Positions 15,758-42,193 of a DNA stretch of 64,000 nucleotides are shown here, piece after piece. Each line of letters begins with the position of its first letter. Position 1 is the first letter of the stretch. The notes beneath the pieces are model-generated. The model was not told where the DNA came from. It worked only from the letters and a program-made list of their open reading frames with translations, and searched no databases. A program made the translations under genes and the position numbers. The stretch comes from an uncultured delta proteobacterium. GTDB taxonomy: Bacteria; Desulfobacterota; RBG-13-43-22. The stretch spans positions 1,954,945-2,018,944 of the forward strand of contig CAWBOS010000010.1 of NCBI GenBank assembly GCA_963790475.1, in the 5' to 3' direction.

Positions 15758-17020
15758 TTGATGCATCCTTTTCGATCTACTGTATTGAGAGCCGCCCTCT
15801 TTCTATTCCTGCTTCTTTCTTCTTCCGCCATACTCTATACTACCTTCCAAAATACCAGGTCGGCCCGGAATCTGGCTGATCAGGCCATGGAAGGCACGGC
15901 CATGGCGCTGGCCTCCACGGTAGAAGCGGAACTTCGCTCCGGAGATAATCTGACAACCCGGCATGTAAACCGCATTTTTTCAGACCGGGTGGTTGCCTAC
16001 GCCTTAGTTTCCGATACAAAGGGACTGATCCTATTTCATACCAATGCCGGTCTGATCGGGACTCCACTTAGGGAGACAGGACTGTATCAATGGCTGCAAA
16101 CCGGGAAAGCCTACGGACAACGGATCACCCTGCGGACCGGCCTGCCGGCCTTTGAATTTAACTACCCCCTCCATCTCCAGGAAGGACGGACGGAACTGCT
16201 CCGATTGGTCATCCACACCTATCCGGCCGATCAAATCATTTCGCGTTCTCAGGGGATGTGGTGGACCGTCGGACTGGTCCTTCTGATCCTTTGGGCCATG
16301 GGAATCCTCTTTGACCGGGCGTTTGTTCATCAACTTCGTCTTCAGAAAAAACTGCAGAGAAGTGAACAATTGTCATTAATTGGGCAGATGACGGCCGTGT
16401 TGACCCATGAAATTCGCAATGCCCTGGGCAGCGTAAAAGGATACACCCAATGGATAGACGAAAAAATGGAAAATTCAGATCCCAAAAAAACAGGACTGAC
16501 CTTTGTTTTAAAGGGGATTGAACGGATTGAATCCCTGGTCCGGGATCTGCTTATCTTTTCCCGTGAGGAAAACTACCACCTTGAGTTCTGTGCGGTTGAC
16601 CGGATAATCCGAGAGGTCATCGATTCAGAAATTTTCTCAACAGCCATAGCAATCGAGACCCAAATCGAAGCGGGGGTACAGGTTTTTGCCGACAAAGAAA
16701 AGGTGCATCGGATTTTACTCAACGGCATCCAGAATGCCCTGCAAGTGATCGAAGACGGCCAGAGTCTCCAGATCAAGGCCGCGTCTAAAGGCAAATGGGT
16801 GGATATCCGGATTGAAGATTCCGGACCGGGAATCCCGGAAGAAGACCAAGCCCGTCTTTTTACCCCTTTTTATACCACCAAAACAACCGGAACCGGATTG
16901 GGTTTGGCTTATTCTAAAAAGGTGGTTGAAGGGATGGGAGGAGAAATCAGCCTGTTCAATAATCCGGAGCATACCGGAGCTGTTTTGAATATCAAATTAC
17001 CTAAGACAGCGAGGTCTTGA
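15758..17020 (+). CDS. Membrane sensor histidine kinase
   Basis: Two transmembrane segments, H-box THEIRN, N box, DSGPGI, FTPFYTTK and GTGLGL. Confidence 0.93.
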   Translation: MMHPFRSTVLRAALFLFLLLSSSAILYTTFQNTRSARNLADQAMEGTAMALASTVEAELRSGDNLTTRHVNRIFSDRVVAYALVSDTKGLILFHTNAGLIGTPLRETGLYQWLQTGKAYGQRITLRTGLPAFEFNYPLHLQEGRTELLRLVIHTYPADQIISRSQGMWWTVGLVLLILWAMGILFDRAFVHQLRLQKKLQRSEQLSLIGQMTAVLTHEIRNALGSVKGYTQWIDEKMENSDPKKTGLTFVLKGIERIESLVRDLLIFSREENYHLEFCAVDRIIREVIDSEIFSTAIAIETQIEAGVQVFADKEKVHRILLNGIQNALQVIEDGQSLQIKAASKGKWVDIRIEDSGPGIPEEDQARLFTPFYTTKTTGTGLGLAYSKKVVEGMGGEISLFNNPEHTGAVLNIKLPKTARS

Positions 17021-17021
17021 A

Positions 17022-18350
17022 ATGAGCCGTTCAATCTTGGTTGTAGAAGACGATGAATTAATGCGTTCTTTCCTCACCCAAATTCTGACCGAAGATGGCT
17101 ATCAGGTTCAATCGGCTGAAGACGGGAAGGAGGGTTTGAAAAAAATACAAGACGCCGACTTCGATCTGGTCATTACCGATCTTAAAATGCCTAAGCTTTC
17201 CGGGCTGGACCTGATGCGGAGAGTTCAAAAAGAAAAACCGGATATCCGGTGGATCATTATAACCGCCTTCGGTTCCATCAGTAATGCCGTAGAGGCCATC
17301 AAAGCCGGGGCCTCCGATTATTTAACCAAGCCTTTTCGAGATCCGGAAGAATTGCGTCATGTCATCCGGCGTGTCTTGAAAGAGGCCGAGGCCGAAAAAA
17401 CCATCTCCCTTCTGTCTGAGGAATTAGGGAAACAATTCCCTCCCCTGGACATGATCTTTTCAGGCAAAAAAATGAAAAAGGTCCGGCAGTTGGTGCAGGA
17501 TGGCGCCCCCACTTCAGCCAGCGTCCTGATTACCGGGCCAAGCGGGACGGGGAAAGAATTAGTGGCCCGGGTCATACATCAACTGAGCCTTCGGAAAGAA
17601 AAGCCGTTCATCCCTGTCCATTGCGCCGCCTTAACTGAAACCCTTTTGGAAAGCGAGCTTTTTGGACATGAACGCGGGGCCTTTACCGGGGCCTCCAGTA
17701 CCCGAAAGGGTCGATTTGAACTGGCCGACGGCGGAACTGTTTTTCTGGACGAGGTAGGAGAGATACCCCTCGCGGTGCAGGTAAAACTTCTCCGGGTCCT
17801 CCAGGAACGGGAGTTTGAACGGGTAGGCGGAACAAAGGCCATTTCCGTTGATATCCGGCTTATATCCGCCAGTAACAAGGACCTCAAGGAGGAAATTTCG
17901 AGTGGTCGATTTCGAGAGGATCTATTCTACAGGCTCCATGTTTTTCCCATCAGCCTGCCCCCCCTGAATGAGCGCCGGGAGGCGATTATCCCGCTGGCCG
18001 AATATTTTGTTGGAAAATTCAGCTCCTCTTTGGGGAAAAAAATTGCCGGCTTCAGTCCGGAAGCAGAAGAATTGCTGCTAAGTTATCCCTGGCCGGGAAA
18101 TATACGGGAATTGCAGAATGTGATCGAGCGGGCGGTCATTCTTGCCAGCGGTCCGATTGATGCGGTTCATCTGAATATAGATCCTCAAGAGGAATCTTCT
18201 TCAATTGGGAAAGGGTTACTCCAAACCAATGAACGGGAATTAATACAAAAGGTCTTGGGTGAGGCCGGAGGGAATAGAAAACAGACAGCGCGGATTTTGG
18301 GCATTTCTCTTCGCACCCTTCAGTATCGGATTAAGGAATATGGACTTTAA
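17022..18350 (+). CDS. sigma54-dependent response regulator (NtrC/ZraR family)
   Basis: REC domain, GPSGTGKE, ESELFGHERGAFTGA, WPGNIRELQN and a Fis-type HTH. Confidence 0.95.
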   Translation: MSRSILVVEDDELMRSFLTQILTEDGYQVQSAEDGKEGLKKIQDADFDLVITDLKMPKLSGLDLMRRVQKEKPDIRWIIITAFGSISNAVEAIKAGASDYLTKPFRDPEELRHVIRRVLKEAEAEKTISLLSEELGKQFPPLDMIFSGKKMKKVRQLVQDGAPTSASVLITGPSGTGKELVARVIHQLSLRKEKPFIPVHCAALTETLLESELFGHERGAFTGASSTRKGRFELADGGTVFLDEVGEIPLAVQVKLLRVLQEREFERVGGTKAISVDIRLISASNKDLKEEISSGRFREDLFYRLHVFPISLPPLNERREAIIPLAEYFVGKFSSSLGKKIAGFSPEAEELLLSYPWPGNIRELQNVIERAVILASGPIDAVHLNIDPQEESSSIGKGLLQTNERELIQKVLGEAGGNRKQTARILGISLRTLQYRIKEYGL

Positions 18351-18520
18351 AGGATGAAGAAAAAAGCCCATCATCCCCGCCTTGGCAGGATTGCCTCGTC
18401 CCTCTTCAGGTCAACCTTAGAACAATTTCCTCTCATTCCTCTGAATTTCATGTATCTACCCTCGGGACTTTTTTGACCTTCCTTTTTTATTTTTTTTCTT
18501 CCTTATACTTTTGAATAATG

Positions 18521-18657
18521 ATGCACGGTTTGCATTCTGATCTGCAAATTTTGCAGCATTAAAGAGGGATTCCAAGATCGCCACGGGATCTTTAGATGAT
18601 TTTCATGTGAGATTTTAGGGAATTGCCCGGACCAGTCTCATTGGCACGGCCTTTGCT
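18521..18657 (+). promoter_or_regulatory. sigma54 promoter with tandem TGCA-N5-TGCA enhancer sites
   Basis: TGGCACGGCCTTTGCT (GG-N10-GC) at 18642-18657. TGCACGGTTTGCA and TGCAAATTTTGCA lie about 100 bp upstream. Confidence 0.8.
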
Positions 18658-18692
18658 TCTTAATTCAGTAAAAACGATTAAGGAGGAAGACC

Positions 18693-18995
18693 ATGATGAA
18701 AAAATTTTTTGTACCCCTAATTGCAGGAGCATTACTGATTACCACTGCTTTTCCCTTTGCTGTGGAAGCCCGGAGAGGAGGCGGTGGCGGATCGATGGGC
18801 GGACCCTGTCTGCAAACCGGTGTCCAGAATCGGGACCGATTGCGGCTTCGGGACGGATCTTGTCTCAACGGGAAAACAACCCGGGCCGGTTTTGGACTTA
18901 GAAGAGGAAATGCCTACGGTCCTGGGGACTGTCCAGGCAATGCAGGCTTCGGGCCAAAAGACGGGACCGGATACGGGGCCCGCTTTCAAAGGTAA
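18693..18995 (+). CDS. Small secreted Gly/Arg-rich protein
   Basis: AGGAGG RBS, signal peptide ending VEA, RDRLRLRDGSC and GPGD/GPKDG repeats. It is the first gene after the sigma54 promoter. Confidence 0.75.
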   Translation: MMKKFFVPLIAGALLITTAFPFAVEARRGGGGGSMGGPCLQTGVQNRDRLRLRDGSCLNGKTTRAGFGLRRGNAYGPGDCPGNAGFGPKDGTGYGARFQR

Positions 18996-23968: not shown

Positions 23969-23989
23969 TGGTGCCGAAGGCGGGAATCG
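23969..23989 (-). mobile_element. tRNA 3'-end duplication (att site, tRNA-Leu-like) marking the left boundary of an integrated region
   Basis: The minus strand reads CGATTCCCGCCTTCGGCACCA. An AT-rich TAACTAATTGATATT tract lies next to it. Confidence 0.75.
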
Positions 23990-24322
23990 CTGAATAAGCG
24001 TAACTAATTGATATTAATAATAGTAATATTATAAGATTTTTTGCATTTTACTTCAATTTATAACCTAGGCACAACTTTTTTCTTTAGTTTGCAGAGTGGA
24101 AGGCAGAGGAGCGGTTAAGGTTCCCCTACTAAACTGGAACGACCCTAGACTTTTGGGAAGTCTTTTACAGGGACGAGAATTACTACTTTTTTTATCGAAG
24201 ATTTTTTAATTGCAAGGTAATGATTTTTTTGATACTTTAATAGAATTTGATTAAGTAACCATAAGAGTATCTTACCCTTATGAGCATTACTCAGATTATT
24301 AAAGGTGTGTTGGGAGATGATG

Positions 24323-26065
24323 ATGACCAAGATAAAACATGATGTCGATGTTCTTGAAAAATGCCCGACGGGCATCAAAGGGCTCGATGAGATCACCAAG
24401 GGAGGGCTTCCAAAAGGCCGGCCAACGCTGATTTGCGGCAGTGCGGGTTGCGGCAAAACACTTTTCGCCATGGAGTTTCTCATGCGGGGCGCCTTGGATT
24501 ACGGAGAACCCGGGGTCTTCATGACCTTCGAGGAGACGCCGGAGGATCTCGCCAAGAACTTCGTCTCTCTTGGTTTTGATCTCCATGACCTGACGTCGCG
24601 TGGTCTCATCGCAACGGACTACGTCCACATCGAGCGAAGCGAGATTGAGGAGACGGGTGAATACGACCTGGAAGGATTGTTCATCCGCCTGGGAAACGCC
24701 ATTGATTCCATCGGAGCGAAGCGGGTTGTCTTAGATACCATAGAAGCACTTTTCTCCGAACTGCCTAATGCCACTATCCTTCGGGCAGAGCTTCGTCGGC
24801 TTTTTCACTGGTTGAAAGATCGCGGTGTGACGGCCGTCGTTACGGGGGAAAGCGGCGACAAGACCCTGACCCGCTACGGGCTCGAAGAATACGTCGCCGA
24901 TTGCGTTGTCCTCCTCGACTTTCGCATCGAGAAGCAAATTTCCACCCGCCGCCTGCGTATTGTCAAGTACCGTGGCTCATCTCACGGCTCCGATGAGTAT
25001 CCCTTCCTGATAGACGACAGCGGCCTCTCTATCCTGCCCATCACTTCCCTGGGGCTCGACTACCCCGTTTCCGCGGAGCGCATCTCCACGGGCATCCCCA
25101 AGTTGGATACCATGCTTGATCAGAAGGGGTTCTACCGGGGCAGCACCATCCTTGTCTCCGGTACAGCGGGTACAGGCAAAACAAGTTTGTCGACTACCTT
25201 TGCCGACGCCGCCTGCCGGCGAGGTGAGCGCTGCCTGTATTTTGCCTTCGAGGAATCGCCCAACCAGATCATCCGCAACATGGGCTCCATCGGCATAGAT
25301 CTCGCCCGATGGGTGAAGAAGGGGCTTCTCAAGTTTCACTCAGCCCGGCCTTCGCTTTACGGCCTTGAGATGCATCTGGTCACCTTCCACAAGGTGATCG
25401 ATGCCTTCAATCCCCAGGTCTTCATTGTAGACCCGATCAGCAACCTGAGCGCCGCGGGAACAGCATCAGAGGTCAAATCCATATTAACGCGCCTGATCGA
25501 CCATTTGAAGATGAAAAAGATCTCTACTTTCCTTACGGACCTCACCCATTTTGGAGGGAGTCTTGAACACACGAGCGAAGAGATATCTTCTCTGATCGAT
25601 ACCTGGCTTCTTCTCCGGGATATCGAACTCAATGGGGAACGCAACCGGGGCCTCTACATTTTGAAGTCCCGCGGCATGGCCCACTCCAACCAGATTCAAG
25701 AGTTCCTGCTCACCAACCAGGGCATTGACCTTATCGATATCTATACCGGGTCCGGCGAGGTATTAACGGGGAGTGCCCGGGCCGCCCAGGAAGCCGAGGA
25801 AAAGTCCTCTGAACTGGCACATCAGCGTGACGTGGATCACAGGCTCCGCGAGCAGGAGCGCAAGAGGAAGGCCCTGGAAGAAAAGATCGCAGCCCTCCGG
25901 GCCGAGTTCGATGCGGAATCTGAAGAGCTGCACTTGATGGTGGAAGAAGAGCGGAAAAGACAAGCTGTCCTGGCGGAAGACCGTTTAGATATGGCGCATC
26001 TTCGCCAGCGGGAACCTTCAGGAATCCGGCGAAGCACTCGAAAAAGAAAAGGGAAAGGAGAGTAA
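24323..26065 (+). CDS. kaiC: Circadian-clock-family ATPase/kinase KaiC (KaiC2-type, with C-terminal coiled coil)
   Basis: Two RecA-like domains ([16 protein letters not shown]), FEE motifs, KYRGS and KSRG, phosphosite region EISSLID, charged coiled-coil tail. Confidence 0.95.
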
Positions 26066-26066
26066 G

Positions 26067-26399
26067 GTGAAAGCTGTCATACCAACAAAGGGGAAGAAAG
26101 CAAAGACCGATTCGACAGAAGAAATCTGGAATCTCCGGTTATATGTAGCCGGTCAGACCCAGAAATCAATTACGGCCTTTGCTAATTTAAAGAAGATCTG
26201 CGAAGAGCACCTCACGGGGAAATACCGCATTGAAGTGATAGACCTTTTAAAGAATCCCCACCTTGCTAAAGGGGACCAGATTATTGCCATACCGACACTG
26301 GTAAGGAAGCTTCCTGAACCGCTTAAAAAGATTATAGGAGATTTGGCTAACACAGAGCGCGTGCTGGTGGGACTCGACATTCGTTCTATATCCGGATGA
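26067..26399 (+). CDS. kaiB: KaiB
   Basis: [39 protein letters not shown]. Confidence 0.95.
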
Positions 26400-26424
26400 T
26401 AAAACCAACTTTGGAGTAACAGCC

Positions 26425-26769
26425 ATGGAAAGGAAAAGAGGGGAAACGAGCACTGAGGAATTCGAAGAAGTGGCGGCGAAGCAAGACCGGGCAAAGTATG
26501 TTCTTCGGCTGTATGTTACCGGGATGACCCCAAAGTCAACCCAGGCAATCGCCAATGTCCAGAAAATCTGTGAAAAACACCTGGCAGGCCGCTACGAACT
26601 CAAGGTGATAGACATCTACCAGCAGCCCAAGCTGGCCAAGGGAGAGCAGATTATTGCCACCCCAACGCTCATCAAAAAACTCCCTTTACCACTCCGGAAG
26701 CTCATCGGTGACATGTCGGATACGGAAAGGTTTCTTGTCGGCATCGATCTGAAACCCAAGGATTCATGA
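26425..26769 (+). CDS. kaiB: Second KaiB
   Basis: YVLRLYVTGMTPKS, VIDIYQQP, ATPTLIKKLPLPLRKLIGDMS. Confidence 0.93.
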   Translation: MERKRGETSTEEFEEVAAKQDRAKYVLRLYVTGMTPKSTQAIANVQKICEKHLAGRYELKVIDIYQQPKLAKGEQIIATPTLIKKLPLPLRKLIGDMSDTERFLVGIDLKPKDS

Positions 26770-26778
26770 GTACGATCA

Positions 26779-28758
26779 ATGAACAAATCATATAGAACAC
26801 ACCAGCAACTTTTGGATGAATTACAGGAACTCTCATCGCGGATGATGGAGGCTGAGGAAACCCTGCGTGCTATCCGAAGCGGTGAGGTGGATGGTCTGGT
26901 TGTCTCAACGGCGGAAGGAGATCGGGTCTTTACACTGATGGGTGCCGAGCATCCTTACCGGGTCATGGTCGAAACCATGAACGAAGGGGCCGTCACTCTG
27001 GCGTCCGACGGCACGATCCTTTACTGTAACCAAAGTTTTGCAGATATCGTCAGAGGGTCTCTGGAAAAAGTAATAGGATCTTCAATCTACCAATATATTT
27101 CATCAACAGACCTTCAATTATTTAAGGCATTGATTGAGCAGGGTTTAAAGGGGAACAGTAAGGGAGAACTGGCCTTACAGGCCGGAAGTGAAAATTCGGC
27201 ACCTGTCTTACTTTCCGTAAGTGCCCTTCAGCGCACGGACATGCCAGGTACGGTGTGCGCCGTAATGGTGGACATCACCGAGCGCAAGAAGATGGAGGAG
27301 ACGCTAAAGACTTCTGAAACTCGCTACCGCCGTCTCTTTGAAGCAGCCCAAGATGGAATATTAATCCTCAATGCCGAGACAGGACAAATAGTGGATGTTA
27401 ACCCATTCTTGTTAGAAATGCTGGGTTATACACATGAGGAGCTTTTTGGGAAAAAACTCTGGGAAATAGGCACGTTTAGAGATATTGAAGCATCGAAAGC
27501 CACCTCTGCGGAATTGAAGAGCAAAGGATATGTTCGCTACCATGATTTGCCGCTTAAGACGAAAGAAGGGCGGGAAATTTCCGTAGAATTTGTCAGCAAT
27601 GTCTATCTGGTTAATCATCATGAAGTGATTCAGTGTAACATCCGCGACACCACTGAAAGGAAACTTACAGCAGAGGCTTTAAAAAAATCTCACAACGAAC
27701 TGGAACGACAAGCTGTCGAACTTCGCACAGCTCTTTCTGAAATCCAAACCATGAAAGACCAACTGGAAGCCGAGAATATTTATTTCCGTCAAGAGAACAA
27801 AAGGAGACATCGATTCGACCATATTATCGGGCAAAGCGATGGTCTCAAGTATGTTCTCTATCGAGCGGAACAGGTCGCCCCTCAGGACACCACGGTCCTT
27901 ATTCTCGGTGAGACCGGTACGGGAAAAGAACTGGTCGCCGCTGCCATTCATAACCTAAGCCCTCGCCGGGAACGACCCTTGATCACCGTCAACTGTGCCG
28001 CCCTGCCGGCCAATTTAATCGAGAGCGAATTGTTCGGCCGGGAGAAGGGGGCCTTTACCGGGGCCGATACCCGGCAAGTCGGCCGGTTTGAGATCGCCCA
28101 TGGTTCCACCCTTTGCTTAGACGAGATCGGGGAACTGCCTTTGGATTTACAGGCCAAGCTGCTCCGGGTGATCCAGCATAATGAATTTGAGCGCCTGGGC
28201 TCGTCCAGGACCATCAAAGTCAATGTGCGGATCCTGGCGACAACCAATCGAAACCTTGAGGAAGAGGTGCGCCACAGTCGGTTTCGCCAGGACCTTTACT
28301 ATCGTCTCAACGTCTTCCCCATCACTGTCCCTCCTCTAAGGCAGCGGAAAGAAGACATCCCGCTGATGGTCCAGGCCTTCATAGAACGGTATTCTAAGAA
28401 ATTGGGCAAACAGATCACGTCCATTCAGAAGGAAACGATGAAGGCCCTCCAGGATTATCCCTGGCCCGGGAATGTCCGGGAGCTGGAAAGCATCATTGAA
28501 CGGGCCGTGATACTGTGCCCCGGGCCGGTCTTGCATCTGGCAGATAAACTGGAAATTTCATCCCCCCCACTCTCATCCCCCGTGAGAACCCTGGAAGGGA
28601 CGGAGCGAAACCAAATTATTAAGACCCTTTCAGAAACCCGATGGCGAATCGAGGGAAAGGACGGGGCCGCAGCTATCCTGGGCCTCCACCCAAGCACCCT
28701 GAGAGCCAGAATGCATAAGCTCGGGATAGTCCGGCCGGAAACTAAACCCTCGGATTAG
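26779..28758 (+). CDS. PAS-PAS sigma54 enhancer-binding protein
   Basis: N-terminal AEETLRAIRSGEVDGLVV, two PAS/PAC domains, GETGTGKE, ESELFGREKGAFTGA, WPGNVREL and HTH GAAAILGLHPSTLRARM. Confidence 0.93.
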   Translation: MNKSYRTHQQLLDELQELSSRMMEAEETLRAIRSGEVDGLVVSTAEGDRVFTLMGAEHPYRVMVETMNEGAVTLASDGTILYCNQSFADIVRGSLEKVIGSSIYQYISSTDLQLFKALIEQGLKGNSKGELALQAGSENSAPVLLSVSALQRTDMPGTVCAVMVDITERKKMEETLKTSETRYRRLFEAAQDGILILNAETGQIVDVNPFLLEMLGYTHEELFGKKLWEIGTFRDIEASKATSAELKSKGYVRYHDLPLKTKEGREISVEFVSNVYLVNHHEVIQCNIRDTTERKLTAEALKKSHNELERQAVELRTALSEIQTMKDQLEAENIYFRQENKRRHRFDHIIGQSDGLKYVLYRAEQVAPQDTTVLILGETGTGKELVAAAIHNLSPRRERPLITVNCAALPANLIESELFGREKGAFTGADTRQVGRFEIAHGSTLCLDEIGELPLDLQAKLLRVIQHNEFERLGSSRTIKVNVRILATTNRNLEEEVRHSRFRQDLYYRLNVFPITVPPLRQRKEDIPLMVQAFIERYSKKLGKQITSIQKETMKALQDYPWPGNVRELESIIERAVILCPGPVLHLADKLEISSPPLSSPVRTLEGTERNQIIKTLSETRWRIEGKDGAAAILGLHPSTLRARMHKLGIVRPETKPSD

Positions 28759-28762
28759 GAAG

Positions 28763-28930
28763 TCCGGCACCCCTCAAAATTTCCCTCAATATATGGAGGT
28801 TCCACTAAATATGGAGGTCCAACACATCCATTCGACCTTCTTTGCTATTCCCCCCTTACAATAAAACCCTGCGATATCAGGCCTGATTCCAAGCTTTTTC
28901 TTTTTTCTGATTTTTGGCAACCTCTTTGCA
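28763..28930 (+). promoter_or_regulatory. Conserved enhancer/sigma54 promoter module, copy 1
   Basis: CCCTCAAAATTTCCCTCAATATATGGAGGTTCCACTAAATATGGAGG...GATATCAGGCCTGATTCCA...TGGCAACCTCTTTGCA. Confidence 0.85.
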
Positions 28931-28943
28931 TTAACTATTCTCT

Positions 28944-29276
28944 ATGATCCTGGTCGTCATACGCATGAAGGTGCTTCCCGAGAAGCACCTGGAGTTGTCG
29001 CAGACGATTGCTTCCCTGATCAGCTCCATAAGGGCGGAGAAAGGTTGCCGGCGTTGCGACTTTTACCAGAGTGTTGAGGATGAAAATCAACTCAATCTTC
29101 TTGAGGAATGGGATACCCAGGAAAACTTTAATGGCTACCTGAAGTCGAGGAGTTTTGGGGTACTCCGGGGGGCGATGAATCTTCTCCAGGAGCCCTCTGA
29201 AATGACGTTCCACACCGTTTTCCACCCGGCAGGGATAAAGGAGATTTTAATAGATAAATTTCCTAAAAAGAGATAA
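28944..29276 (+). CDS. Antibiotic biosynthesis monooxygenase (ABM) family protein
   Basis: IRAEKGC..CDFYQ, LLEEW and the ~100-aa ferredoxin-like pattern. Confidence 0.82.
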   Translation: MILVVIRMKVLPEKHLELSQTIASLISSIRAEKGCRRCDFYQSVEDENQLNLLEEWDTQENFNGYLKSRSFGVLRGAMNLLQEPSEMTFHTVFHPAGIKEILIDKFPKKR

Positions 29277-29313: not shown

Positions 29314-29466
29314 ATGGGACTCATCCTGATCGTCATCTTAGTCCTGGTGCTCATCGGCGCCTTGCCCACCTGGAATCACAGTAAGTCCTGGGGACCTTAT
29401 CCCAGCGGCGGAATCGGATTGATCCTTCTGATTGTGATCATCCTCTTAGTATTAGGGCGGATTTGA
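29314..29466 (+). CDS. DUF3309-type small membrane protein
   Basis: MGLILIVILVLVLIGALPTWNHSKSWGPYPSGGIGLILL..GRI with an AAGGAG RBS. It is below the ORF-track length cutoff. Confidence 0.88.
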   Translation: MGLILIVILVLVLIGALPTWNHSKSWGPYPSGGIGLILLIVIILLVLGRI

Positions 29467-29652: not shown

Positions 29653-29787
29653 ATGCAAATAGGACTAACGCCACAGCCGGTGGTTGCTCTAATCGCGGGA
29701 ATCCTGATTCTTGTCGCCCCGAGACTTTTGAATTATATCGTTGCCATCTATCTCATTATTTTTGGTATTCTCGGGTTGATCCGCTGA
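29653..29787 (+). CDS. DUF3096-type small membrane protein
   Basis: PVVALIAGILILVAPRLLNYIVAIYLIIFG with an AGGAGG RBS. Confidence 0.88.
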   Translation: MQIGLTPQPVVALIAGILILVAPRLLNYIVAIYLIIFGILGLIR

Positions 29788-30099: not shown

Positions 30100-32508
30100 G
30101 TGAGGAAGATAAAGAGGGTGAAGAGCTGGATGGGTTTGGGGGTGTGTTTGTTTCTGGCAGCGGTGATGATGGTTCCGGTATCCTCGTCCGCAGACGCTCC
30201 GGCCATAGTGGTAGGCCGCATATTTCTAATTGAAGGGGATCTCCTTCGTTATGTTCCTGCGGAGAAGGACTGGGTGGCCGTGGTCAAGGACGCACCCTTC
30301 GGTGCCGAGGATACCCTCTTTTCCGGAACCCAGGGGATGGCGGAGCTGATCGTTCCCAACGACACCTGGATCAGGATCGGGAACAGCACCCAGATCCAGT
30401 TCATCACCCTGGATACCGACCTGTCCGAAATGGACATGGCTTCGGGTGTGGCTCGGTTCTACAACAAAAGCTCCGACACGGTCATCAAAGCCACAAGTCC
30501 CTTCGGATACGTCCTGGCCAATCCCGGAACGGTCTTCGATTTCTACGTGGGAGAAAACTCCATCGAAGTGGTCACGGTGAAAGGGAAAGTAAGTTTCGTC
30601 CACTCGGCCACTGAGACCAAATACAATGTGGCGGCCGGATCCCCCTCTATCCTCGCTGACCAGCGGCAAGTGTCCTCAGGCGATGGAACCGTCGATCCTG
30701 ACTGGAACCGCTGGAACACGGTCCGGGAAAACTTTTGGGCGGCGAAGGCCAGGGTGAGGGGACGCTCGGTCGAATATCTTCCGCCCAGTCTCCGAAACGA
30801 GTCGTATGCCCTGGATGAGACCGGAAGATGGGAGAGGGTCTCCTATGAAGGTACGGAGTGCTGGTTCTGGCGGCCTACCACAATAGTCGTAGGCTGGTCG
30901 CCTTTTTCCGTGGGCCGCTGGACCGACTGGTACGGGGACCAGACCTGGATCCCGGCGGAACCCTTCGGCTACGTCACCCACCATTACGGTAACTGGGTCT
31001 ATGTAGGAAAGTACTGGTACTGGGCCCCGCCTGTGGTGAGAAGGCGCGTCGGGCTTCCCCTCCTCGACGTGGGCTTCTTTTGGTATCCCGGAAGGGTTTC
31101 ATGGATTCACAGTGGAGCTTATGTGGGCTGGGTGCCTCTGGCGCCACTCGAGAATTACTACAGCTACCGCAACTGGGGAGGCCCTCACGATGTGGCCGTA
31201 ACCAACGTCAGTTTAGCGCGGATCAATATCAACCTCCGGAATTATGCCTACGCCAACCGTGCCGTTGTGGTCGACCGGAATAATTTCTATAAGGTGAACA
31301 ATTACGCGAAAGTCCGGGTGACCAACATAAACCCGGCCACCCTCATCAATAACTACCGTGCGGCACCGGTCGTCAATAACACGGTGATCGACAATTACAC
31401 GACGAACAAACAGCGTTATAATTATGGAAACATAACCGTAAAGGAGAAACCTCACAATACCGTGATCAACCGAATCCAGCAGAATCAGGCCATCATCCGT
31501 GAGGGCAGGAAAGAAAAGGCCTCCGTGGTCCAGGAACGAGTGAAGAGCATCCCGGAGGGGAAGGTTAACCGCGAAGTCCGGATCGAAACGCCCAAGGTCA
31601 CCAACCATATCGTACCCGCCGCCGAGGTGAACCGGCCGAAAGCGGAAATAAAGTTTCAGCAGAGGGAGATCAAAACCGGCGGAAAACCGGGTCTGCCGGA
31701 GAAGCCTGCCGTACGGCCGGAGCGTGTGGCCCCGGCCAGACCGAGTCCTCAGGAGAAACCCGGTCAACCCGCAGGACCGGAAAGAGTGAGTCCGGCAAGA
31801 CCTGCTCAACCTGTGCCGCCTTCAGCACGACCGGAGCGCGTGGCACCGGTCAGACCAAGCCCGCAGGAGCAACCTGGTCAACCCGCAAGACCGGAGCGAG
31901 CGGCTCCCCCAAAACCGGCTCCGCCTGAACCACCAGCAGCAAGACCTGAACGCGCAGCACCGGCCAGGCCAAGTCAGCAGGTGCAACGACCCGGTCAACC
32001 CGCAGGACCGGAACGAGTGAGTCCGGCAAGACCGGCTCAACCTGAACCACCAGCAGCAAGACCTGAACGTGCAGCACCAGCCAGGCCAAGTCAGCAGGTG
32101 CAACAACCCAGTCAACCCGCAAGACCGGAAAGAGTGGCTCCCCCAAAACCGGCTCCGCCTGAACCACCAGCAGCAAGACCTGAACGCGCAGCACCGGCCA
32201 GGCCGAGTCAGCAGGTGCAACAACCCAGTCAACCCGCAAGACCGGAAAGAGTGGCTCCCCCAAAACCGGCTCAGCCTCAACCACCAGCAGCAAGACCTGA
32301 ACGCGCAGCACCAGCCAGGCCGAGTCAGCAGGTGCAACAACCCGGTCAACCCGCAGGACCGGAGCGCGTGGTCCCGGCAAAACCGGCAGAGAAAGGTCCT
32401 GTACAAAAACAAATCGAAAAACCAAAGGACCAGAGGCCCCCTGAAAAAGATGAGGAAAACCCAAGAGAGCAGAAACGTCCCGAGGAAGAAAAGGGAAGAT
32501 CGAGGTAG
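30100..32508 (+). CDS. Secreted FecR-like/DUF6600-like protein with long Pro-rich repeat tail
   Basis: Signal peptide, FecR-like beta domain, Trp-rich GWSPFSVGRW..EPFGYVTHHYGNW..GWVPLAP and PARP repeats. Confidence 0.85.
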   Translation: MRKIKRVKSWMGLGVCLFLAAVMMVPVSSSADAPAIVVGRIFLIEGDLLRYVPAEKDWVAVVKDAPFGAEDTLFSGTQGMAELIVPNDTWIRIGNSTQIQFITLDTDLSEMDMASGVARFYNKSSDTVIKATSPFGYVLANPGTVFDFYVGENSIEVVTVKGKVSFVHSATETKYNVAAGSPSILADQRQVSSGDGTVDPDWNRWNTVRENFWAAKARVRGRSVEYLPPSLRNESYALDETGRWERVSYEGTECWFWRPTTIVVGWSPFSVGRWTDWYGDQTWIPAEPFGYVTHHYGNWVYVGKYWYWAPPVVRRRVGLPLLDVGFFWYPGRVSWIHSGAYVGWVPLAPLENYYSYRNWGGPHDVAVTNVSLARININLRNYAYANRAVVVDRNNFYKVNNYAKVRVTNINPATLINNYRAAPVVNNTVIDNYTTNKQRYNYGNITVKEKPHNTVINRIQQNQAIIREGRKEKASVVQERVKSIPEGKVNREVRIETPKVTNHIVPAAEVNRPKAEIKFQQREIKTGGKPGLPEKPAVRPERVAPARPSPQEKPGQPAGPERVSPARPAQPVPPSARPERVAPVRPSPQEQPGQPARPERAAPPKPAPPEPPAARPERAAPARPSQQVQRPGQPAGPERVSPARPAQPEPPAARPERAAPARPSQQVQQPSQPARPERVAPPKPAPPEPPAARPERAAPARPSQQVQQPSQPARPERVAPPKPAQPQPPAARPERAAPARPSQQVQQPGQPAGPERVVPAKPAEKGPVQKQIEKPKDQRPPEKDEENPREQKRPEEEKGRSR
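31700..32390 (+). repeat. Coding tandem repeat, 117-bp (39-aa) unit, about 5-6 copies
   Basis: CCT(G/C)AACCACCAGCAGCAAGACC recurs at 31924, 32041, 32158 and 32275. Confidence 0.85.
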
Positions 32509-32523
32509 GCAAAAGGATATTTA

Positions 32524-33591
32524 ATGACCGATAATGTTAAACGGACAGCCAAAACGCCCGCAATACTGATCCTGGCGAGTTTTATCATTGTGGTGGCGGG
32601 GATGAGGGCGGCCAGTTCCATCTTGGTTCCTTTTTTTGTGGCGGTGTTCATTGCCGTCATTTGCGCCCCGCCAATGTTCTGGCTGCAACGTAAGGGCGTG
32701 CCAAAGGTCATTGCGCTTGTGCTCATTCTGGTGACCATCCTCCTGGTAGGATTACTCTTGGGAGCATTGATCGGCCCTTCACTGAGTAATTTCTTGACCT
32801 CCCTTCCCAATTATCAAGAGCGATTATCGGCCTATATTGCCGCGTTAATAAACTGGCTGAGCGAGAAGGGCCTTAACATCCCGGCAGAGGAGGTGCCCCA
32901 TATCTTGAATCCGGGGTGGGTGATGAGCCTGGCAGGGGGTATATTCTCGGCCCTGAGCAGTGTCCTCACCGATACCTTTCTGATCCTGCTTACGGTGGTA
33001 TTCATCCTTCTGGAGGCAGCAGATTTTCCAAAGAAATTGCAGACCGTGTTAAAAATCCCGGAGAGGTCACTGTCTACCATTGAAAAATTCAGCCAGAGCG
33101 CCAAGCGCTATCTGGTCATTAAAACCCTGATCAGCGCTGCCGTTGGCCTGGTGATCTGGCTTTGGCTCCTGATCCTCGGGGTCGAATATCCGCTGCTCTG
33201 GGGAACGCTCTCGTTTCTGCTGAACTATGTGCCTAATATTGGGGCAATCATTGCTGTCCTGCCTGTTGCCCTTCTCGCGCTGGTCCAGTTGGGGGTGGGG
33301 TCTGCCCTTCTAACCGTCCTTGGCTTTGTGGTCGTGCATATTGTTCTGGGCAATATCATAGAACCCAAACTTACCGGCAAAGGCCTGAGTTTATCGACGC
33401 TGGTGGTCTTCCTTTCGATGGTCTTCTGGGGATGGGTTCTGGGACCGATTGGTATGATCCTCTCGGTGCCTATGACCAGCCTGGCCAAAATCGCGCTGGA
33501 AAGTTATGAAGAAACACAAGGGCTGGCCATCATGCTGGGATCCGGAAGCGAGATTGACCTGATCAAGAGGTTGAAGCGACGCAAGAAATAA
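32524..33591 (+). CDS. AI-2E family transporter
   Basis: Multiple transmembrane segments, FLLNYVPNIG, GNIIEPK and FWGWVLGPIGMILSVP. Confidence 0.92.
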   Translation: MTDNVKRTAKTPAILILASFIIVVAGMRAASSILVPFFVAVFIAVICAPPMFWLQRKGVPKVIALVLILVTILLVGLLLGALIGPSLSNFLTSLPNYQERLSAYIAALINWLSEKGLNIPAEEVPHILNPGWVMSLAGGIFSALSSVLTDTFLILLTVVFILLEAADFPKKLQTVLKIPERSLSTIEKFSQSAKRYLVIKTLISAAVGLVIWLWLLILGVEYPLLWGTLSFLLNYVPNIGAIIAVLPVALLALVQLGVGSALLTVLGFVVVHIVLGNIIEPKLTGKGLSLSTLVVFLSMVFWGWVLGPIGMILSVPMTSLAKIALESYEETQGLAIMLGSGSEIDLIKRLKRRKK

Positions 33592-33687
33592 GGCACGAAG
33601 GAAAGAAAGGATCTTTGAGCATCAGACCCTCGGGGCTCCATTCTTTAGGAATAAATCAGGGATTATCTCTTGGGTGTCCTTGACGCA

Positions 33688-34551
33688 ATGAAACAAACTT
33701 ATTTGATGAGATTCAAGCAGCACAGAGAAATTCTCAAAAACCTCGGCCTTCTTTGGGAAGTTCTTAAGAAATTCAATGATGACAATGGCTTTTTCTTATC
33801 TTCGGGGATTGCCTTCAATATCCTCCTCAACTTGATTCCTTTTATCCTGCTGCTATCAGCCTTGGTTGGAACTTATCTCTACAACGACCAGGAAGTGCTC
33901 AATCATATTCGCACCTATTTCCGGGATGTGGCTCCGGCATTGGATCCAAAGATAATGGGAAGCCTCGTGGATCTAATCGAGAACCGTCAGATTGTAGGAA
34001 TCCTTGGATTTGTAGGTTTGCTCTGGTTCTCCACCTGGGTTTTCAACTCCCTGCGGATTGCTCTCAATATCGTCTTCCGCACGAAGAAAAGCCGAGGAAT
34101 AATGCGGGGATTAGGCATTGATCTTTTGATGATTATCCTGGTAGGAATCCTCCTCCTGGTGAGCATGATTCTTAGCTCCGTGGTCCCCTTCCTTCAAAGT
34201 TACCAGGGACTGATTCCTGTGGCGATAGGGCCGACGATTCAATGGATCCTGAAATACCTGCTCCCTTTTTTCCTCACCTTTTGCATGTTTTTTTTGATTT
34301 ACAAAATCACCCCGAATAAGAGGGTCCACTTCAAATCCGCCCTTCAGGCGGCCCTTTTTGCCGGTTTGCTCTGGGAAGCAGCCAAACATCTTTTTGCCTG
34401 GTATGTCGTCCATCTCGCCAAGTACTCTTTTTTTTATGGCTCATTAAGTACCCTGGTCGTTTTCGTTTTGTGGGTCTATTATTCTGCGATCGTTCTCATT
34501 CTGGGCGGGGAATTTGCTTATTTCTTGGAAGAAAGCGAGAATCCAGTTTAA
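33688..34551 (+). CDS. YihY/BrkB family membrane protein (start uncertain)
   Basis: DNGFFLSSGIAF, ALNIVF, LWEAAK and YGSL..LWVYY. Confidence 0.9.
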   Translation: MKQTYLMRFKQHREILKNLGLLWEVLKKFNDDNGFFLSSGIAFNILLNLIPFILLLSALVGTYLYNDQEVLNHIRTYFRDVAPALDPKIMGSLVDLIENRQIVGILGFVGLLWFSTWVFNSLRIALNIVFRTKKSRGIMRGLGIDLLMIILVGILLLVSMILSSVVPFLQSYQGLIPVAIGPTIQWILKYLLPFFLTFCMFFLIYKITPNKRVHFKSALQAALFAGLLWEAAKHLFAWYVVHLAKYSFFYGSLSTLVVFVLWVYYSAIVLILGGEFAYFLEESENPV

Positions 34552-34597: not shown

Positions 34598-34757
34598 CCC
34601 TCAAAATTCCCCTCAATATATGGGGGTTCCACCACATATTGAGGCCTAATAATGGTTTCAATCTTCTTTACTAATCTTCCCTGTTCATCAAACCCTACGA
34701 TATCAGGCATGATTCCAGACTTCTTCTTTTTTCCTAGCTGTTGGTAAGCTACTTGCA
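34598..34757 (+). promoter_or_regulatory. Conserved enhancer/sigma54 promoter module, copy 2
   Basis: CCCTCAAAATTCCCCTCAATATATGGGGGTTCCACCACATATTGAGG...GATATCAGGCATGATTCCA...TGGTAAGCTACTTGCA. Confidence 0.85.
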
Positions 34758-35014: not shown

Positions 35015-35329
35015 ATGAAAAAGAGAAATATCGTTATTCACTGTTTAGTGCTTCTTATGCTGATCACCACCTTTGCCGGCTGTGCCGCTACACGTACCCA
35101 TGAAAGCACAGGGGGATACGTTGACGATTCGGTCATCACCACTAAAATAAAATCTCTACTGGCAGCAGATGATTTTCTCAAGTCATTCCAGATCAGTGTC
35201 GAATCTTTCAAGGGCGTTGTTCAGCTAAGCGGTTTTGTTAATAATCAAAAGGCAGTCGATAAAGCGGCTGAAATCGCAATGAGCGTCAAAGGGGTCAAAT
35301 CCGTAAAGAATAATCTGATCGTGAAATAG
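35015..35329 (+). CDS. BON domain lipoprotein (OsmY-like)
   Basis: Lipobox FAGC, DDSVITTKIK, GVVQLSGFV and GVKSVKNNL. Confidence 0.92.
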   Translation: MKKRNIVIHCLVLLMLITTFAGCAATRTHESTGGYVDDSVITTKIKSLLAADDFLKSFQISVESFKGVVQLSGFVNNQKAVDKAAEIAMSVKGVKSVKNNLIVK

Positions 35330-35390
35330 GAAACGGTTATTCTATAGTGAGATTTATAAATAAGACACTTTTTGAAAGGAGGAGAATCCC

Positions 35391-35537
35391 ATGTTGTGGA
35401 CGATTGCCGTAATACTGATAATTCTGTGGCTGCTGGGATTGGTGACCAGTTATACGATGGGTGGGTTCATTCACATCGCGCTGGTGATTGCCGTTATCGT
35501 TATTATAGTCGGCCTTATTCAGGGACGGCGAGGGTAG
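35391..35537 (+). CDS. lmo0937 family small membrane protein
   Basis: MLWTIAVILIILWLLGLVTSYTMGGFIHIALVIAV..IQGRR with an AGGAGG RBS. Confidence 0.88.
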   Translation: MLWTIAVILIILWLLGLVTSYTMGGFIHIALVIAVIVIIVGLIQGRRG

Positions 35538-35616: not shown

Positions 35617-35808
35617 TTGATTGCTCTGGGAATTGCGGCCTTTGCCTACCGGGGCATCGCCCACACGATCAGAGAGAAAATCCCTGATCTCGGCCCTATC
35701 CAGGGGGCGGCAGAGAAAACTAAAATTCTTCCGATGCCGCCCATGGTAGGGGTAATCGCGCTCGTGGGCGGCATCCTGCTGCTGGTTATGGGAAGCACAA
35801 AAGGGTAA
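35617..35808 (+). CDS. DUF3185-like small membrane protein, probably 5'-truncated
   Basis: AFAYRGI..REKIPDLGPIQ..EKTKILPMPPMVG. Confidence 0.6.
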   Translation: MIALGIAAFAYRGIAHTIREKIPDLGPIQGAAEKTKILPMPPMVGVIALVGGILLLVMGSTKG

Positions 35809-35846
35809 TGAGGATTAAAACAGAGATGTGTATAGGAGGTGGCAAA

Positions 35847-36659
35847 ATGAAAAAGTTATTTTTTGGAACATTGCTGTTAGCGTTGGTAATCGTAGTTCCT
35901 TGGCCGGCGATGGCCAGGGTAGATGTAAATATTAGTATTTCTCTGCCGCCGCCTATCTTTTTTGCCGCCCCACCGGCGCTGATAGTGCTGCCTGATACCT
36001 ATGTCTACGTCGTCCCTGACATAGACGCGGACATTTTCTTCTACAATGGTTGGTGGTGGCGTCTGTGGGAAGGACGTTGGTATCGCTCACATTATTATAA
36101 CCAGGGCTGGGATTATTATAACAATGTTCCCAGTTTTTATTTTGATATAGACCCGGGTTGGAGAGGATACTACAGAGACCGCAATTGGTATGGGCACCGC
36201 TGGAACTATGAACGGATTCCTTACCAGCAACTTCAACAGAACTGGAAGAGCTGGCATGACGATCGACATTGGGAAAGGCAAGGAACTTGGGGTGTCCAGA
36301 GCTATCAACCTCGACCACAACAACAGATACGGGAACTAAGACAACAAAGGCAACAGCAATATCAACAGAGGCCTGAGGTTCAGAAACCTCGAGTTCAGCA
36401 ACCGCAGAGACAAACTCAGGTTCAGCAGCCAAGACAAAAACCTCAAGAGAGAGTTCGGCAGCCTCAAAGGCAAGAGCAAAGACCTCGAGTTCAGCAACCG
36501 CAGAGACAAACTCAGGTTCAGCAGCCAAGACAAAAACCTCAAGAGAGAGTTCAGCAGCCCCAAAGGCAAGAGCAAAGACCTCAGGTTCAGCAACCGCAGC
36601 ACTCTCAACCTCAAGGAAAACCGGAAGGAGGGAAAGGAGAAAAGGAGGATAGAAAGTAG
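35847..36659 (+). CDS. Secreted Trp/Tyr-rich protein with Gln-rich repeat tail
   Basis: Signal peptide, VDVNISI, FFYNGWWWRLWEGRWY. A 96-bp direct repeat occurs at 36386 and 36482. Confidence 0.75.
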   Translation: MKKLFFGTLLLALVIVVPWPAMARVDVNISISLPPPIFFAAPPALIVLPDTYVYVVPDIDADIFFYNGWWWRLWEGRWYRSHYYNQGWDYYNNVPSFYFDIDPGWRGYYRDRNWYGHRWNYERIPYQQLQQNWKSWHDDRHWERQGTWGVQSYQPRPQQQIRELRQQRQQQYQQRPEVQKPRVQQPQRQTQVQQPRQKPQERVRQPQRQEQRPRVQQPQRQTQVQQPRQKPQERVQQPQRQEQRPQVQQPQHSQPQGKPEGGKGEKEDRK

Positions 36660-36924: not shown

Positions 36925-38793
36925 CTATCCCAGTCGATAACCTTTTTCTCGAAATAATCTCAGACAGGCCACTGCGACAGCGTTGTCGTAAAGGGTCCCT
37001 CTATTCTTCTCAATTTCCTCCAGGGCAGCGTCAAGGCCCAAGGCCGGGCGGTATGGCCGGTTAGAGGCCATGGCTTCCACCACATCAGCCACAGCCAAAA
37101 TGCGGGCTTCCATAAGAATGTTATCCCCTTTCAGATTTCTTGGATAGCCCGAACCATTCATCCGCTCATGGTGTTGATAAACAATTTGGGCCAGCGGCCA
37201 GGGGGATTCGACGTCCTTCAGGATATCGTACCCTCTTTGAGAGTGTTCTTTAATCAGTGAAAATTCGATTACAGTCAATTTTGTTGGCTTGGACAATATC
37301 TCGGCAGGTATGGATAGTTTTCCAATGTCATGGACGGCACCGGCCATGCGCAGGCCATCGATTTTATCCTGAGAAAGTCCCATCTCGGTGGCAATGGCCC
37401 GGGCAAGGTCCGCGGACCGGGCCTGGTGACCGGCGGTATAAGGATCTCTTGCCTCCACGGTGGACACCATGACCTGGATGATCGTGCTAAACGCCTTCCT
37501 GAGACTCTCCAGGGTATGTTGAAGTTGTTCCTTGGCCCGCTTGTCCTCGGTGATATCCTCGGAGATGCCCAGCAGGTATTCCGGTTCTCCCTCTGCGTTC
37601 AGGATCGGCACCTTCTTGGTGTGCAGTGTGCGCTCTCCCTTATTACGGGTCTGAATAGGTTCTTCCGGGATATCCACAAGCTCCTTCCCATGCAGAACCT
37701 CCCGATCCTTCTCCGTAAAGGAGTCGGCCTGCTTCTTTGGGAAGAAATCGTAATCGTTCTTCCCCAGCAGGTCATCCCTGGAAAGACCTAGCAGATTCTC
37801 TCCCGCCCGGTTGAACCGGATGAACCGGAGTTCCCTGGCATCCTTGAGGAAGATCATATCAGGAATATTCTCGACAATCGAGTCCAGAAACACATTCATC
37901 CGGCGCAGTTTCTCCTCCGCCTGCTTGTGCTCCGTAATATCAATGATAGCTCCTCTGAGTCCCACAGGCTTGTCATTTATGCAAATGACACTCGAGATTA
38001 CTATGGCCGGAAAGACAGACCCATCCAACCTCATGAAAGTATATTCAGTACCTTCTATTTTCTCCCCCCTTAACAGTCTTTCAATGTTTTTACCGGATTT
38101 TTCAATCTCTTCTGGTGAAAGTAGCTGCCATACTTTAAAACCCTTTTTTAAATCCTCTTCAGTACCTCTAAAAGTCTCATAAATAGCCCGGTTAGCCGAT
38201 GTAATATTGGTTTCCAAATCCATCTCATAAACTGGGATTGGCAAAAAATCATACAGGTCACGATACCTTTTCTCGCTCTCCCTCAGTTTTTCCTCGGCCT
38301 GCTTGCGCGCGGTGATGTCCTGCTGCAGGTTCTCCAATGCTTGCCTTAATTCTTCGGTCCTCCTGGTCACCTCGGACTCCAGCTCTTTCTGGTAATTACT
38401 CATCAAATCGTTGTAGGCCTTGATCTTGAGTAGGGACCGGACCCGGGCCAAAAGCTCCATCTTATCCACAGGATATGAAATAAAATCATCACACCCGGCT
38501 TCAATTCCCTTTACCCGATCTTCCGTTTCCCGCAATACGGAAACCAAGATTATCGGAAGCAGTCGATGTGTATTATCCTGCCTGACCCTACGGGTAACTT
38601 CAAGACCATCCATGCCGGGCATCAAGACGTCCAGCAAAATCAGATCAATTTGATTCTCAGAAAGTTTCTCCAGCGCTTCCTCACCGTTTGACGCCTTGAC
38701 AATTTCATAACCCTGCGGAACAAGATAGGCCTCGAGAAGTTCAATGTTTTCGGGCTGGTCGTCCGCAACCAAGATTACCGGTTTGTCTTTCAT
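36925..38793 (-). CDS. REC-PAS-PAS-HD-GYP cyclic dinucleotide phosphodiesterase
   Basis: REC domain, two PAS domains, RDPYTAGHQ, HDIGK, HHERMNGSGYP and RPYR. Confidence 0.93.
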   Translation of the reverse strand: MKDKPVILVADDQPENIELLEAYLVPQGYEIVKASNGEEALEKLSENQIDLILLDVLMPGMDGLEVTRRVRQDNTHRLLPIILVSVLRETEDRVKGIEAGCDDFISYPVDKMELLARVRSLLKIKAYNDLMSNYQKELESEVTRRTEELRQALENLQQDITARKQAEEKLRESEKRYRDLYDFLPIPVYEMDLETNITSANRAIYETFRGTEEDLKKGFKVWQLLSPEEIEKSGKNIERLLRGEKIEGTEYTFMRLDGSVFPAIVISSVICINDKPVGLRGAIIDITEHKQAEEKLRRMNVFLDSIVENIPDMIFLKDARELRFIRFNRAGENLLGLSRDDLLGKNDYDFFPKKQADSFTEKDREVLHGKELVDIPEEPIQTRNKGERTLHTKKVPILNAEGEPEYLLGISEDITEDKRAKEQLQHTLESLRKAFSTIIQVMVSTVEARDPYTAGHQARSADLARAIATEMGLSQDKIDGLRMAGAVHDIGKLSIPAEILSKPTKLTVIEFSLIKEHSQRGYDILKDVESPWPLAQIVYQHHERMNGSGYPRNLKGDNILMEARILAVADVVEAMASNRPYRPALGLDAALEEIEKNRGTLYDNAVAVACLRLFREKGYRLG

Positions 38794-40339: not shown

Positions 40340-40340
40340 C

Positions 40341-41781: not shown

Positions 41782-41949
41782 TCCGGCACCCCTCAAAATT
41801 TCCCTCCATATTTGGAGGTTCCACCAGATATGGAGGCTGGAAAAATCTTTCAACCTTCTTGGCCAATCTCTCTTATTCATTAAACTTCTGGATATCAGGC
41901 TTGATTCCAACCTTCTTCCTTTCCCCCGGTTGTTGGTAAGCTACTTGCA
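41782..41949 (+). promoter_or_regulatory. Conserved enhancer/sigma54 promoter module, copy 3
   Basis: TCCGGCACCCCTCAAAATTTCCCTCCATATTTGGAGGTTCCACCAGATATGGAGG...GATATCAGGCTTGATTCCA...TGGTAAGCTACTTGCA. Confidence 0.85.
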
Positions 41950-42010: not shown

Positions 42011-42193
42011 ATGAAATCAAGCAGTAGGGACAAGGCGGAAGGAAAGTTTCACGAAGTGAAGGGAAAGGTCAAGGAGGTCGCCGGGAAAGTCAGCGATAAT
42101 CCTGAGTTGGAAGCTGAAGGTATTGGCGAAAAGATAGCCGGGAAGGTTCAAAAGAAAATCGGCCAGGTGAAGAAAGCCGTCGAGAAACTGTGA
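42011..42193 (+). CDS. CsbD family general stress protein
   Basis: DKAEGKFHEVKGKVKEVAG..LEAEG..EKIAGKVQ. Confidence 0.9.
   Translation: MKSSSRDKAEGKFHEVKGKVKEVAGKVSDNPELEAEGIGEKIAGKVQKKIGQVKKAVEKL

Follow-up and report, generated by a model that had tools for sequence, protein, structure and literature searches.

The kai operon and its activator

This report concerns a kai operon and the sigma54 transcriptional activator that closes it, located in a stretch of 64,000 nt (hereafter the window) of contig CAWBOS010000010.1 from an uncultured delta proteobacterium (Desulfobacterota; RBG-13-43-22). kaiC, two kaiB genes (encoding KaiB-a and KaiB-b) and the activator gene follow one another with gaps of 1, 25 and 9 nt (Table 1). 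The open reading frames (ORFs) bear out the gene order and spacing given in an earlier note on this DNA, as well as its description of the operon as KaiA-less: no KaiA match (PF07688; positive control S. elongatus) was obtained genome-wide, in a search that did not separately cover KaiA3-type proteins. We focus on the N-terminal segment of the activator (the module), through which the Kai proteins may act on transcription.

KaiC comprises two KaiC ATPase stretches (PF06745), a phosphosite with two serines (SS, residues 428-429, numbered from the GTG) and a C-terminal tail of ~50 residues (alignment to R. sphaeroides KaiC, 8DBA, reaches residue 555 of 581). It scored 644 bits against 8DBA and ~330 bits against cyanobacterial KaiC chains, stayed below the cut-off of the cyanobacterial KaiC family TIGR02655, and lacks the ST phosphosite that marks KaiC1. 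An SS phosphosite is given as the KaiC2 mark in the available portions of PMC5520375 and PMC10076222; here and below, literature marked "in part" is cited from such portions. Its closest KaiC, the two serines, the tail and the absence of a KaiA match assign the protein to KaiC2 of the R. sphaeroides type, and it is the only KaiC encoded in the host genome.

Pfam matches in the activator are PAS, PAS, Sigma54_activat, an AAA lid and HTH_8 (24.4 bits, cut-off 22). The GAFTGA motif (residue 424) and both Walker motifs are intact and rpoN is present in the genome, as expected of a sigma54 enhancer-binding protein. Pfam detected no receiver domain, which sets the activator apart from NtrC-type response regulators, and the absence of a kinase domain from the gene after kaiB sets the operon apart from the kaiC-kaiB-PAS/histidine kinase layout. 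Named activators (FhlA, NifA, NorR and others) all scored below the curated NCBIfam cut-off among the 25 of 45 families listed. These checks agree with what the note had read from the sequence, namely the two ATPase domains, SS site and tail of KaiC and a PAS-PAS-AAA+-HTH activator with intact GAFTGA and no receiver. The end that it gave (28930) needs correction, as the activator stops at 28758 and the remainder holds an enhancer and a sigma54 promoter, both unmentioned there.

Since the operon layout recurs in other genomes, it does not stem from an error in this assembly (9.68% contamination). No sequencing run contained half of the window. RNA-library contigs of relatives span the kaiB-activator junction in three of four runs, which may reflect DNA carry-over or other organisms and is not counted as evidence. 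In a relative from the same family (locus L274, 1744-3834), kaiC and kaiB-a share one open frame, either as a fusion or through a lost stop codon.

A conserved module at the activator N-terminus

Residues 1-66 of the activator matched no Pfam family above cut-off and no PDB sequence. AlphaFold2 predicted a helix, a hairpin and then a PAS domain for residues 1-177 (101 sequences, predicted local distance difference test (pLDDT) 91.4). Foldseek searches with the module-PAS1 model returned PAS-domain matches only, all to PAS1, and no family for the module; the NifL-NifA structure in that list was likewise a PAS match only. Conservation centres on the helix end and the first strand, where several positions reach 92-100% (256 sequences). 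Because unrelated proteins of the host genome also start with similar coiled coils, the Kai-specific part is the core (about residues 24-58) together with PAS1, a refinement of the residues 1-60 first proposed as a Kai module, of which the Kai linkage stands. A profile of the core, which includes the window's own sequence, scored 72 bits once in the host genome and at most 14 elsewhere.

Of the 5,691 clusters (50% identity) matched by the module profile, 4,270 reach E ≤ 1e-10; in almost every one of the 150 listed, the match is close to the N-terminus. Module identity is 83-96% across more than 100 listed proteins, mostly sigma54 fusions. PAS1 travels with the full module, and short forms keep neither the hairpin nor PAS1. 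Three proteins (P0121, P0123 and P0262) contain two or three tandem module-PAS repeats each.

Linkage of the module to kai genes

Linkage was counted in both directions; relatives in these counts are not independent, and the counts are given without P values. A survey of 251 host-phylum genomes placed the module at 17 sites in 15 of them, with kaiB ≤1.5 kb upstream at 15 of the 17 (of the other two, one lies where a contig starts and the other is without the core). KaiB was present above cut-off in all 15 module genomes versus 31 of the 251 overall. In a multi-phylum sample (the best 80 of 452 confirmed module loci, chosen by intact core pattern), kaiB lies ≤2.5 kb upstream in 73 loci; of the remaining seven, three have kai genes elsewhere in the locus, three have <450 nt of upstream DNA and one (L087) has none. 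All four module matches on plasmids are downstream of kaiC-kaiB. Conversely, in samples drawn by KaiB searches (≤30 loci each, one unpublished genome excluded), the module follows 29 of 30 bacterial kaiC2-kaiB clusters whose KaiC is at least 50% identical to that of the window (13/14, 8/8 and 8/8). The 13/14 group is the host phylum, its lone miss being cut by a contig end, and two of the 30 clusters are from seed genomes. The co-occurrence of segment and kaiBC that the note had asked about is seen both ways, and the module is not common in loci without kai genes, the outcome it had named as contrary.

Loci with divergent KaiC (32-40% identity, n = 7) carry a short form with only the coiled coil and the helix-end motif. 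Archaeal clusters with several kaiB genes contain the module in 5/5 cases. Six host-phylum genomes with strong matches to KaiB of kaiB-kaiC order gave no module match genome-wide. Separately, five kaiB-kaiC clusters of the host phylum (L157, L159, L161, L166 and L177) are preceded by a protein whose C-terminus appears KaiA3-like by eye. Three degenerate copies lack any kai gene within 10-11.5 kb; they have lost the core but kept the second strand and PAS1, and probably derive from one event. A pairing of the module with the KaiC tail gained no support, given module-less tailed KaiC2 in archaea and short tails at two module loci.

KaiB subfamilies and a modelled contact

Subfamily profiles separate the two KaiBs and reveal a fixed order of kaiC, KaiB-a, KaiB-b and module. 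Modules away from kaiC keep KaiB-b (four cases, one ambiguous). One in-frame ORF joins a KaiB, a short module form, PAS domains and a kinase, which may result from a lost stop codon. A complex model of KaiB-b with activator residues 6-176 scored 0.38 versus 0.10 for the best control, which is weak support, in a range that the tool rates as more often wrong than right unless the guess is already likely. The runs share at least 94% of contacts, with a partner pLDDT of at least 83. Of the reference pairs, 116 of 157 solved ones passed the mark, compared with 2 of 215 mismatched; only 18 of the 157 did so at scores of ≤0.60, as did both mismatches. These counts are approximate for the alignments used here, and the model came without an interface. 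Docking had been suggested for modelling by the note, and the resulting KaiB-b model slightly raises the odds of binding. We consider it likely that some Kai protein binds the module-PAS1 unit, and tentatively name KaiB-b as that protein.

Outputs that carry the module

Module proteins of at least 200 residues from the 80 loci (n = 70) comprise 50 histidine kinases, 6 sigma54 activators (one truncated), 2 LuxR-type proteins, 1 GGDEF-EAL protein and 11 without an output domain at E ≤ 1e-12, so that the module is kept across four output types. In R. sphaeroides KD131 and 2.4.1, the kinase after kaiBC starts with the module (KD131 WP_012643402.1, 57 bits), in line with the similar N-terminus that the note gave for kinases behind kaiC2-kaiB. 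In a close relative, a protein that lacks the sigma54 part bears a module of 88% identity, and several module fusions are broken or cut (loci L022 and L024). At locus L099 (3127-9592), kaiC-kaiB-kaiB and a module kinase are followed by an incomplete kaiB, then by a sigma54 activator with the module, the enhancer and the ABM gene, which makes two outputs on one kai operon. Two further loci (L036, 6613-8832; L045, 1165-4988) encode module-PAS proteins with a LuxR-type HTH, a second phosphorelay-free output, with more kaiB genes downstream.

A sigma54 enhancer and putative stress regulon

The 34-bp double dyad behind the activator was also found behind orthologous activators. A matrix trained on other genomes detected four sites in the 6.3 Mb host genome (28784, 34611 and 41803 in the window, and C6:490580; scores 40-49, none between 16 and 40), each 96-97 nt ahead of a -24/-12 element. 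The pattern built from these copies occurs in 15 of the 251 genomes and its reversed control in 0. All 29 sites in the 15 genomes have a promoter 96-99 nt downstream (chance per site ~7 in 10,000). Among the three window copies, the enhancer is 85-88% and the spacer 39-69% identical (ungapped). The enhancer is present in seven of eight distinct sigma54-type module loci, six of the seven being training loci, and in one of 74 other loci, where the module gene is cut by a contig end. On these sequence patterns, the activator HTH very probably binds the double dyad at sigma54 promoters, ~97 nt upstream of their -24/-12 elements.

Genes past these promoters are listed in Table 1; their general-stress label rests on the roles that we take CsbD and OsmY to have. 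The predicted transcription start (~28941) is ~3 nt ahead of the ABM ATG (28915-28946), and the 29-30 nt spacing seen here recurs in most orthologues, so that this sigma54 transcript may be leaderless. The idea that the enhancer autoregulates the kai operon was rejected, with no site upstream of kaiC; a sigma70 scan found 2 sites versus 1.4 expected, which is chance level.

Twelve enhancer genomes without the module encode the same activator, with HTH regions 80-88% identical. Since these kai-less orthologues keep the enhancer, Kai is dispensable for the regulon and only one of its several inputs. The module would be a plug-in input, added to an activator that elsewhere functions without Kai. 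In an AAA+-HTH tree (quick method; 63 of 116 rows, near-copies removed), activators with and without the module intermingle within a single shallow clade of good support. The join of module and activator fits the term "grafted" used in the note, while the tree fails to separate gain from loss. Its proposal of a sigma54 output without a phosphorelay gains from the matching enhancers and promoters, but the note missed that activator and regulon mostly occur apart from kai genes, which leaves Kai as one optional input.

Table 1. Features of the kai operon and its putative regulon (window positions)
Feature	Position	Strand	Basis
kaiC, KaiC2 / R. sphaeroides type; likely start an ATG among 24320/24323/24326	24305..26065	+	GTG at 24305
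kaiB, first subfamily (KaiB-a)	26067..26399	+	PF07689 and subfamily profiles
kaiB, second subfamily (KaiB-b), partner retained when the module moves	26425..26769	+	Pfam KaiB and subfamily profiles
sigma54 activator, 659 residues: module-PAS1-PAS2-AAA+-HTH, without receiver	26779..28758	+	ORF and Pfam
N-terminal module, residues 1-58; helix 8-34, hairpin 39-52	26779..26952	+	Predicted structure, profiles
Kai-linked core of the module, residues 24-58	26848..26952	+	Profile, conservation
PAS1, co-travels with the module	26953..27288	+	Pfam, profiles
PAS2, common to the activator and its kai-less orthologues	27322..27657	+	Pfam
AAA+ (GAFTGA, Walker A and B) with lid, and Fis-type HTH	27823..28719	+	Pfam, motifs
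34-bp double-dyad enhancer, predicted activator binding site	28784..28817	+	Matrix, conservation
sigma54 -24/-12 promoter, 97 nt past the enhancer	28915..28930	+	Promoter scan
ABM-domain gene, first past the promoter	28944..29276	+	Pfam
DUF3309 gene, small membrane protein	29314..29466	+	Pfam
DUF3096 gene, small membrane protein	29653..29787	+	Pfam
DUF6600/FecR gene, AI-2E transporter and BrkB/YihY gene; possibly regulon members	30100..34551	+	Strand and position
Second enhancer (34611-34644) and sigma54 promoter (34742)	34611..34757	+	Matrix
BON-domain gene and DUF5670 gene, past the second promoter	35015..35537	+	Pfam
Third enhancer (41803-41836) and sigma54 promoter (41934)	41803..41949	+	Matrix
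CsbD-like gene, past the third promoter	42011..42193	+	Pfam

Within the putative regulon, the DUF6600/FecR protein (30100-32508) contains extended repeats rich in Pro and Gln, and 35808-36659 encodes another repeat protein, rich in Gln. Between the second and third enhancers, the minus strand (36925-41579) encodes a PAS kinase, a single receiver, a receiver with a cyclase-like part (by eye) and a receiver-PAS-HD protein. Elsewhere in the window, a separate kinase and receiver-type sigma54 activator (15758-18995) have their own -24/-12 site at 18642, which lacks the enhancer and lies downstream of that different activator. A transposase-like ORF (by eye) occurs amid low-GC stretches at 50977-52356. 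A minus-strand fragment resembling a tRNA 3' end (23969-23989), presumably tRNA-Leu-like, adjoins an AT-rich stretch before kaiC; an integration boundary there is supported neither by a second copy in the genome nor by a gene in the ARAGORN scan.

A proposed Kai-to-sigma54 switch

We moderately favour a reading in which a KaiC2-KaiB-KaiB switch controls the sigma54 activator through direct contact, the activator in turn switching on a set of general-stress genes. In R. sphaeroides, KaiC2 shifts state with the ATP/ADP ratio and recruits KaiB, KaiB in its fold-switched state binds KaiC CI, and the ATP/ADP ratio resets the system (PMC10076222, in part). Judging by its sequence, KaiC2 of the window would likewise change state with the ATP/ADP ratio and recruit KaiB. 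KaiB, most likely KaiB-b, would then bind the module core, formed by the end of the coiled-coil helix and the hairpin. The signal would pass via PAS1 and PAS2 to the AAA+ domain and turn promoters on or off, and the HTH, on the double-dyad enhancer, would open sigma54 promoters ~97 nt downstream of it. The predicted targets are the ABM, BON, CsbD and small membrane-protein genes. In this presumed non-phototroph, an energy-starvation switch is more likely than a daily timer, and it fits the target genes better. It is also consistent with the alphaproteobacterial output through HWE kinases, a family tied to the general stress response (10.1101/641647, in part), and with Pseudomonas KaiC, which binds a PAS domain and has a role in stress (10.1101/2022.01.26.477890, in part).

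Besides the range in which the complex model scores, several observations weigh against this reading. Only 3 of the 15 enhancer genomes carry the module; among the remaining 12, KaiB matches are absent from all but one. Ten orthologues with a readable N-terminus begin with a coiled coil and PAS, without the core and without a kai gene in the fetched stretch. In the host family, 3 of 14 activator copies (in 13 of 21 genomes) have the module, three of the module-less copies being in short or cut frames. The module at L087 has no kai gene in 7 kb, with a kaiB pair elsewhere in its genome, and at L094 kaiC lies directly before the module with no KaiB found. None of the 12 single-kaiB clusters in the archaeal sample has the module; a receiver-domain protein follows in 9 of the 12. 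Gene adjacency would also account for KaiB-b moving with the module. Nor is KaiB-b a requirement, as the KaiB that accompanies the module in single-kaiB systems, R. sphaeroides included, is KaiB-a-like or intermediate.

L094 fits a variant in which the docking partner of the module or PAS1 is KaiC rather than KaiB and the remaining pathway is unchanged. The joint travel of PAS1 with the full module agrees with it, as does the co-precipitation of P. putida KaiC, of a different KaiC group, with the N-terminal PAS domain of the neighbouring kinase (10.1101/2022.01.26.477890, in part). Modules moved off kaiC nevertheless retain a kaiB, and short forms are reduced to the helix-end motif, without hairpin and PAS1; we regard KaiC docking as unlikely.

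The predominance of kai-less orthologues with the same enhancer, the mixed shallow clade and the broken or cut fusions (L022, L024) could also mean that the activator is driven by a PAS2 signal of its own. In that case the module would be a recombination passenger from a kai-kinase operon, with little or no effect on transcription, or only a tether. Against this stand the strong identity of the module in the >100 listed proteins, the decay of its core where kai genes are absent, and the kaiB-activator-enhancer unit placed behind a second kai operon at L099; we regard a passenger module as rather improbable.

A daily hourglass timer gating sigma54 transcription by time of day is the least credible alternative and very improbable: KaiC is indeed closest to the R. 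sphaeroides hourglass protein (644 vs ~330 bits), but the targets are stress-type genes and the nearest named relatives of the host are delta-proteobacterial metagenome-assembled genomes, taken as non-phototrophs. R. palustris has kaiC-dependent daily properties (PMC4794148, in part), whereas the R. sphaeroides system requires an external ATP/ADP switch (PMC10076222, in part) and Pseudomonas KaiC phosphorylation tracks culture age, not circadian cues (10.1101/2022.01.26.477890, in part).

Relation to known systems and significance

Sigma54 activators set by contact with a partner protein, not by phosphorylation, are represented by NifA-NifL and PspF-PspA. The system proposed here differs from them in that its partner would be the Kai complex and its input segment is common to kinases. 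It resembles the cyanobacterial KaiABC clock with SasA/CikA-RpaA, in which the Kai complex is coupled to transcription through the N-terminal domain of a partner. Unlike that clock, it has no KaiA, no KaiC1 and no phosphotransfer step, and where the SasA input is KaiB-like, the module is a helix and hairpin without Pfam or PDB match.

A close likeness is to KaiBC of R. sphaeroides and R. palustris (PMC4794148, PMC10076222, in part), which share KaiC2 with SS and tail, the absence of KaiA and a PAS signalling gene after kaiB; in R. sphaeroides KD131, kinase WP_012643402.1 opens with the same module as the activator here. The operon of the window differs in its two specialised KaiBs, in having as output not an HWE kinase but a sigma54 activator, to which an enhancer and regulon belong, and in a host that is probably not phototrophic. 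The KaiC-kinase pairs of P. putida and P. protegens are also comparable, as a KaiC-type protein binds the adjacent PAS signalling protein and affects stress resistance (10.1101/2022.01.26.477890, in part), but theirs is a different KaiC group, which acts via a kinase and response regulator.

The kaiC-kaiB-PAS/kinase operon is already in print (PMC4794148, PMC5520375, PMC10931921, in part), whereas the available portions of PMC11372060, PMC12288465, PMC10359499 and 10.64898/2026.04.01.715469 contain no sigma54 output. Neither the module nor a Kai-linked sigma54 activator is described in the literature searched, which left most subscription journals and supplements out of reach; the earlier note likewise knew of no description of this output. 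For KaiA-less KaiBC, the texts seen in part name the neighbouring PAS kinase as the candidate output and give no binding element. The module offers a 35-residue candidate surface for that output, also present on the R. sphaeroides KD131 kinase; for R. sphaeroides, purified KaiB and KaiC and structures exist. The sigma54 fusion provides a short readout (four proteins, one 34-bp site and one promoter), with Kai-less orthologues as natural controls.

A broader and still doubtful extension is that the module serves as a general output socket of KaiC2-type systems in bacteria and some archaea, with a specialised second KaiB as adaptor and kinases, LuxR proteins, cyclic di-GMP enzymes and sigma54 activators plugged in, here as an energy-charge switch that would trigger a sigma54 stress regulon. 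Whatever the role of Kai, the enhancer defines a stress-type sigma54 regulon in this lineage. If true, a direct Kai-to-sigma54 stress switch would be a lead to the output of KaiA-less systems.

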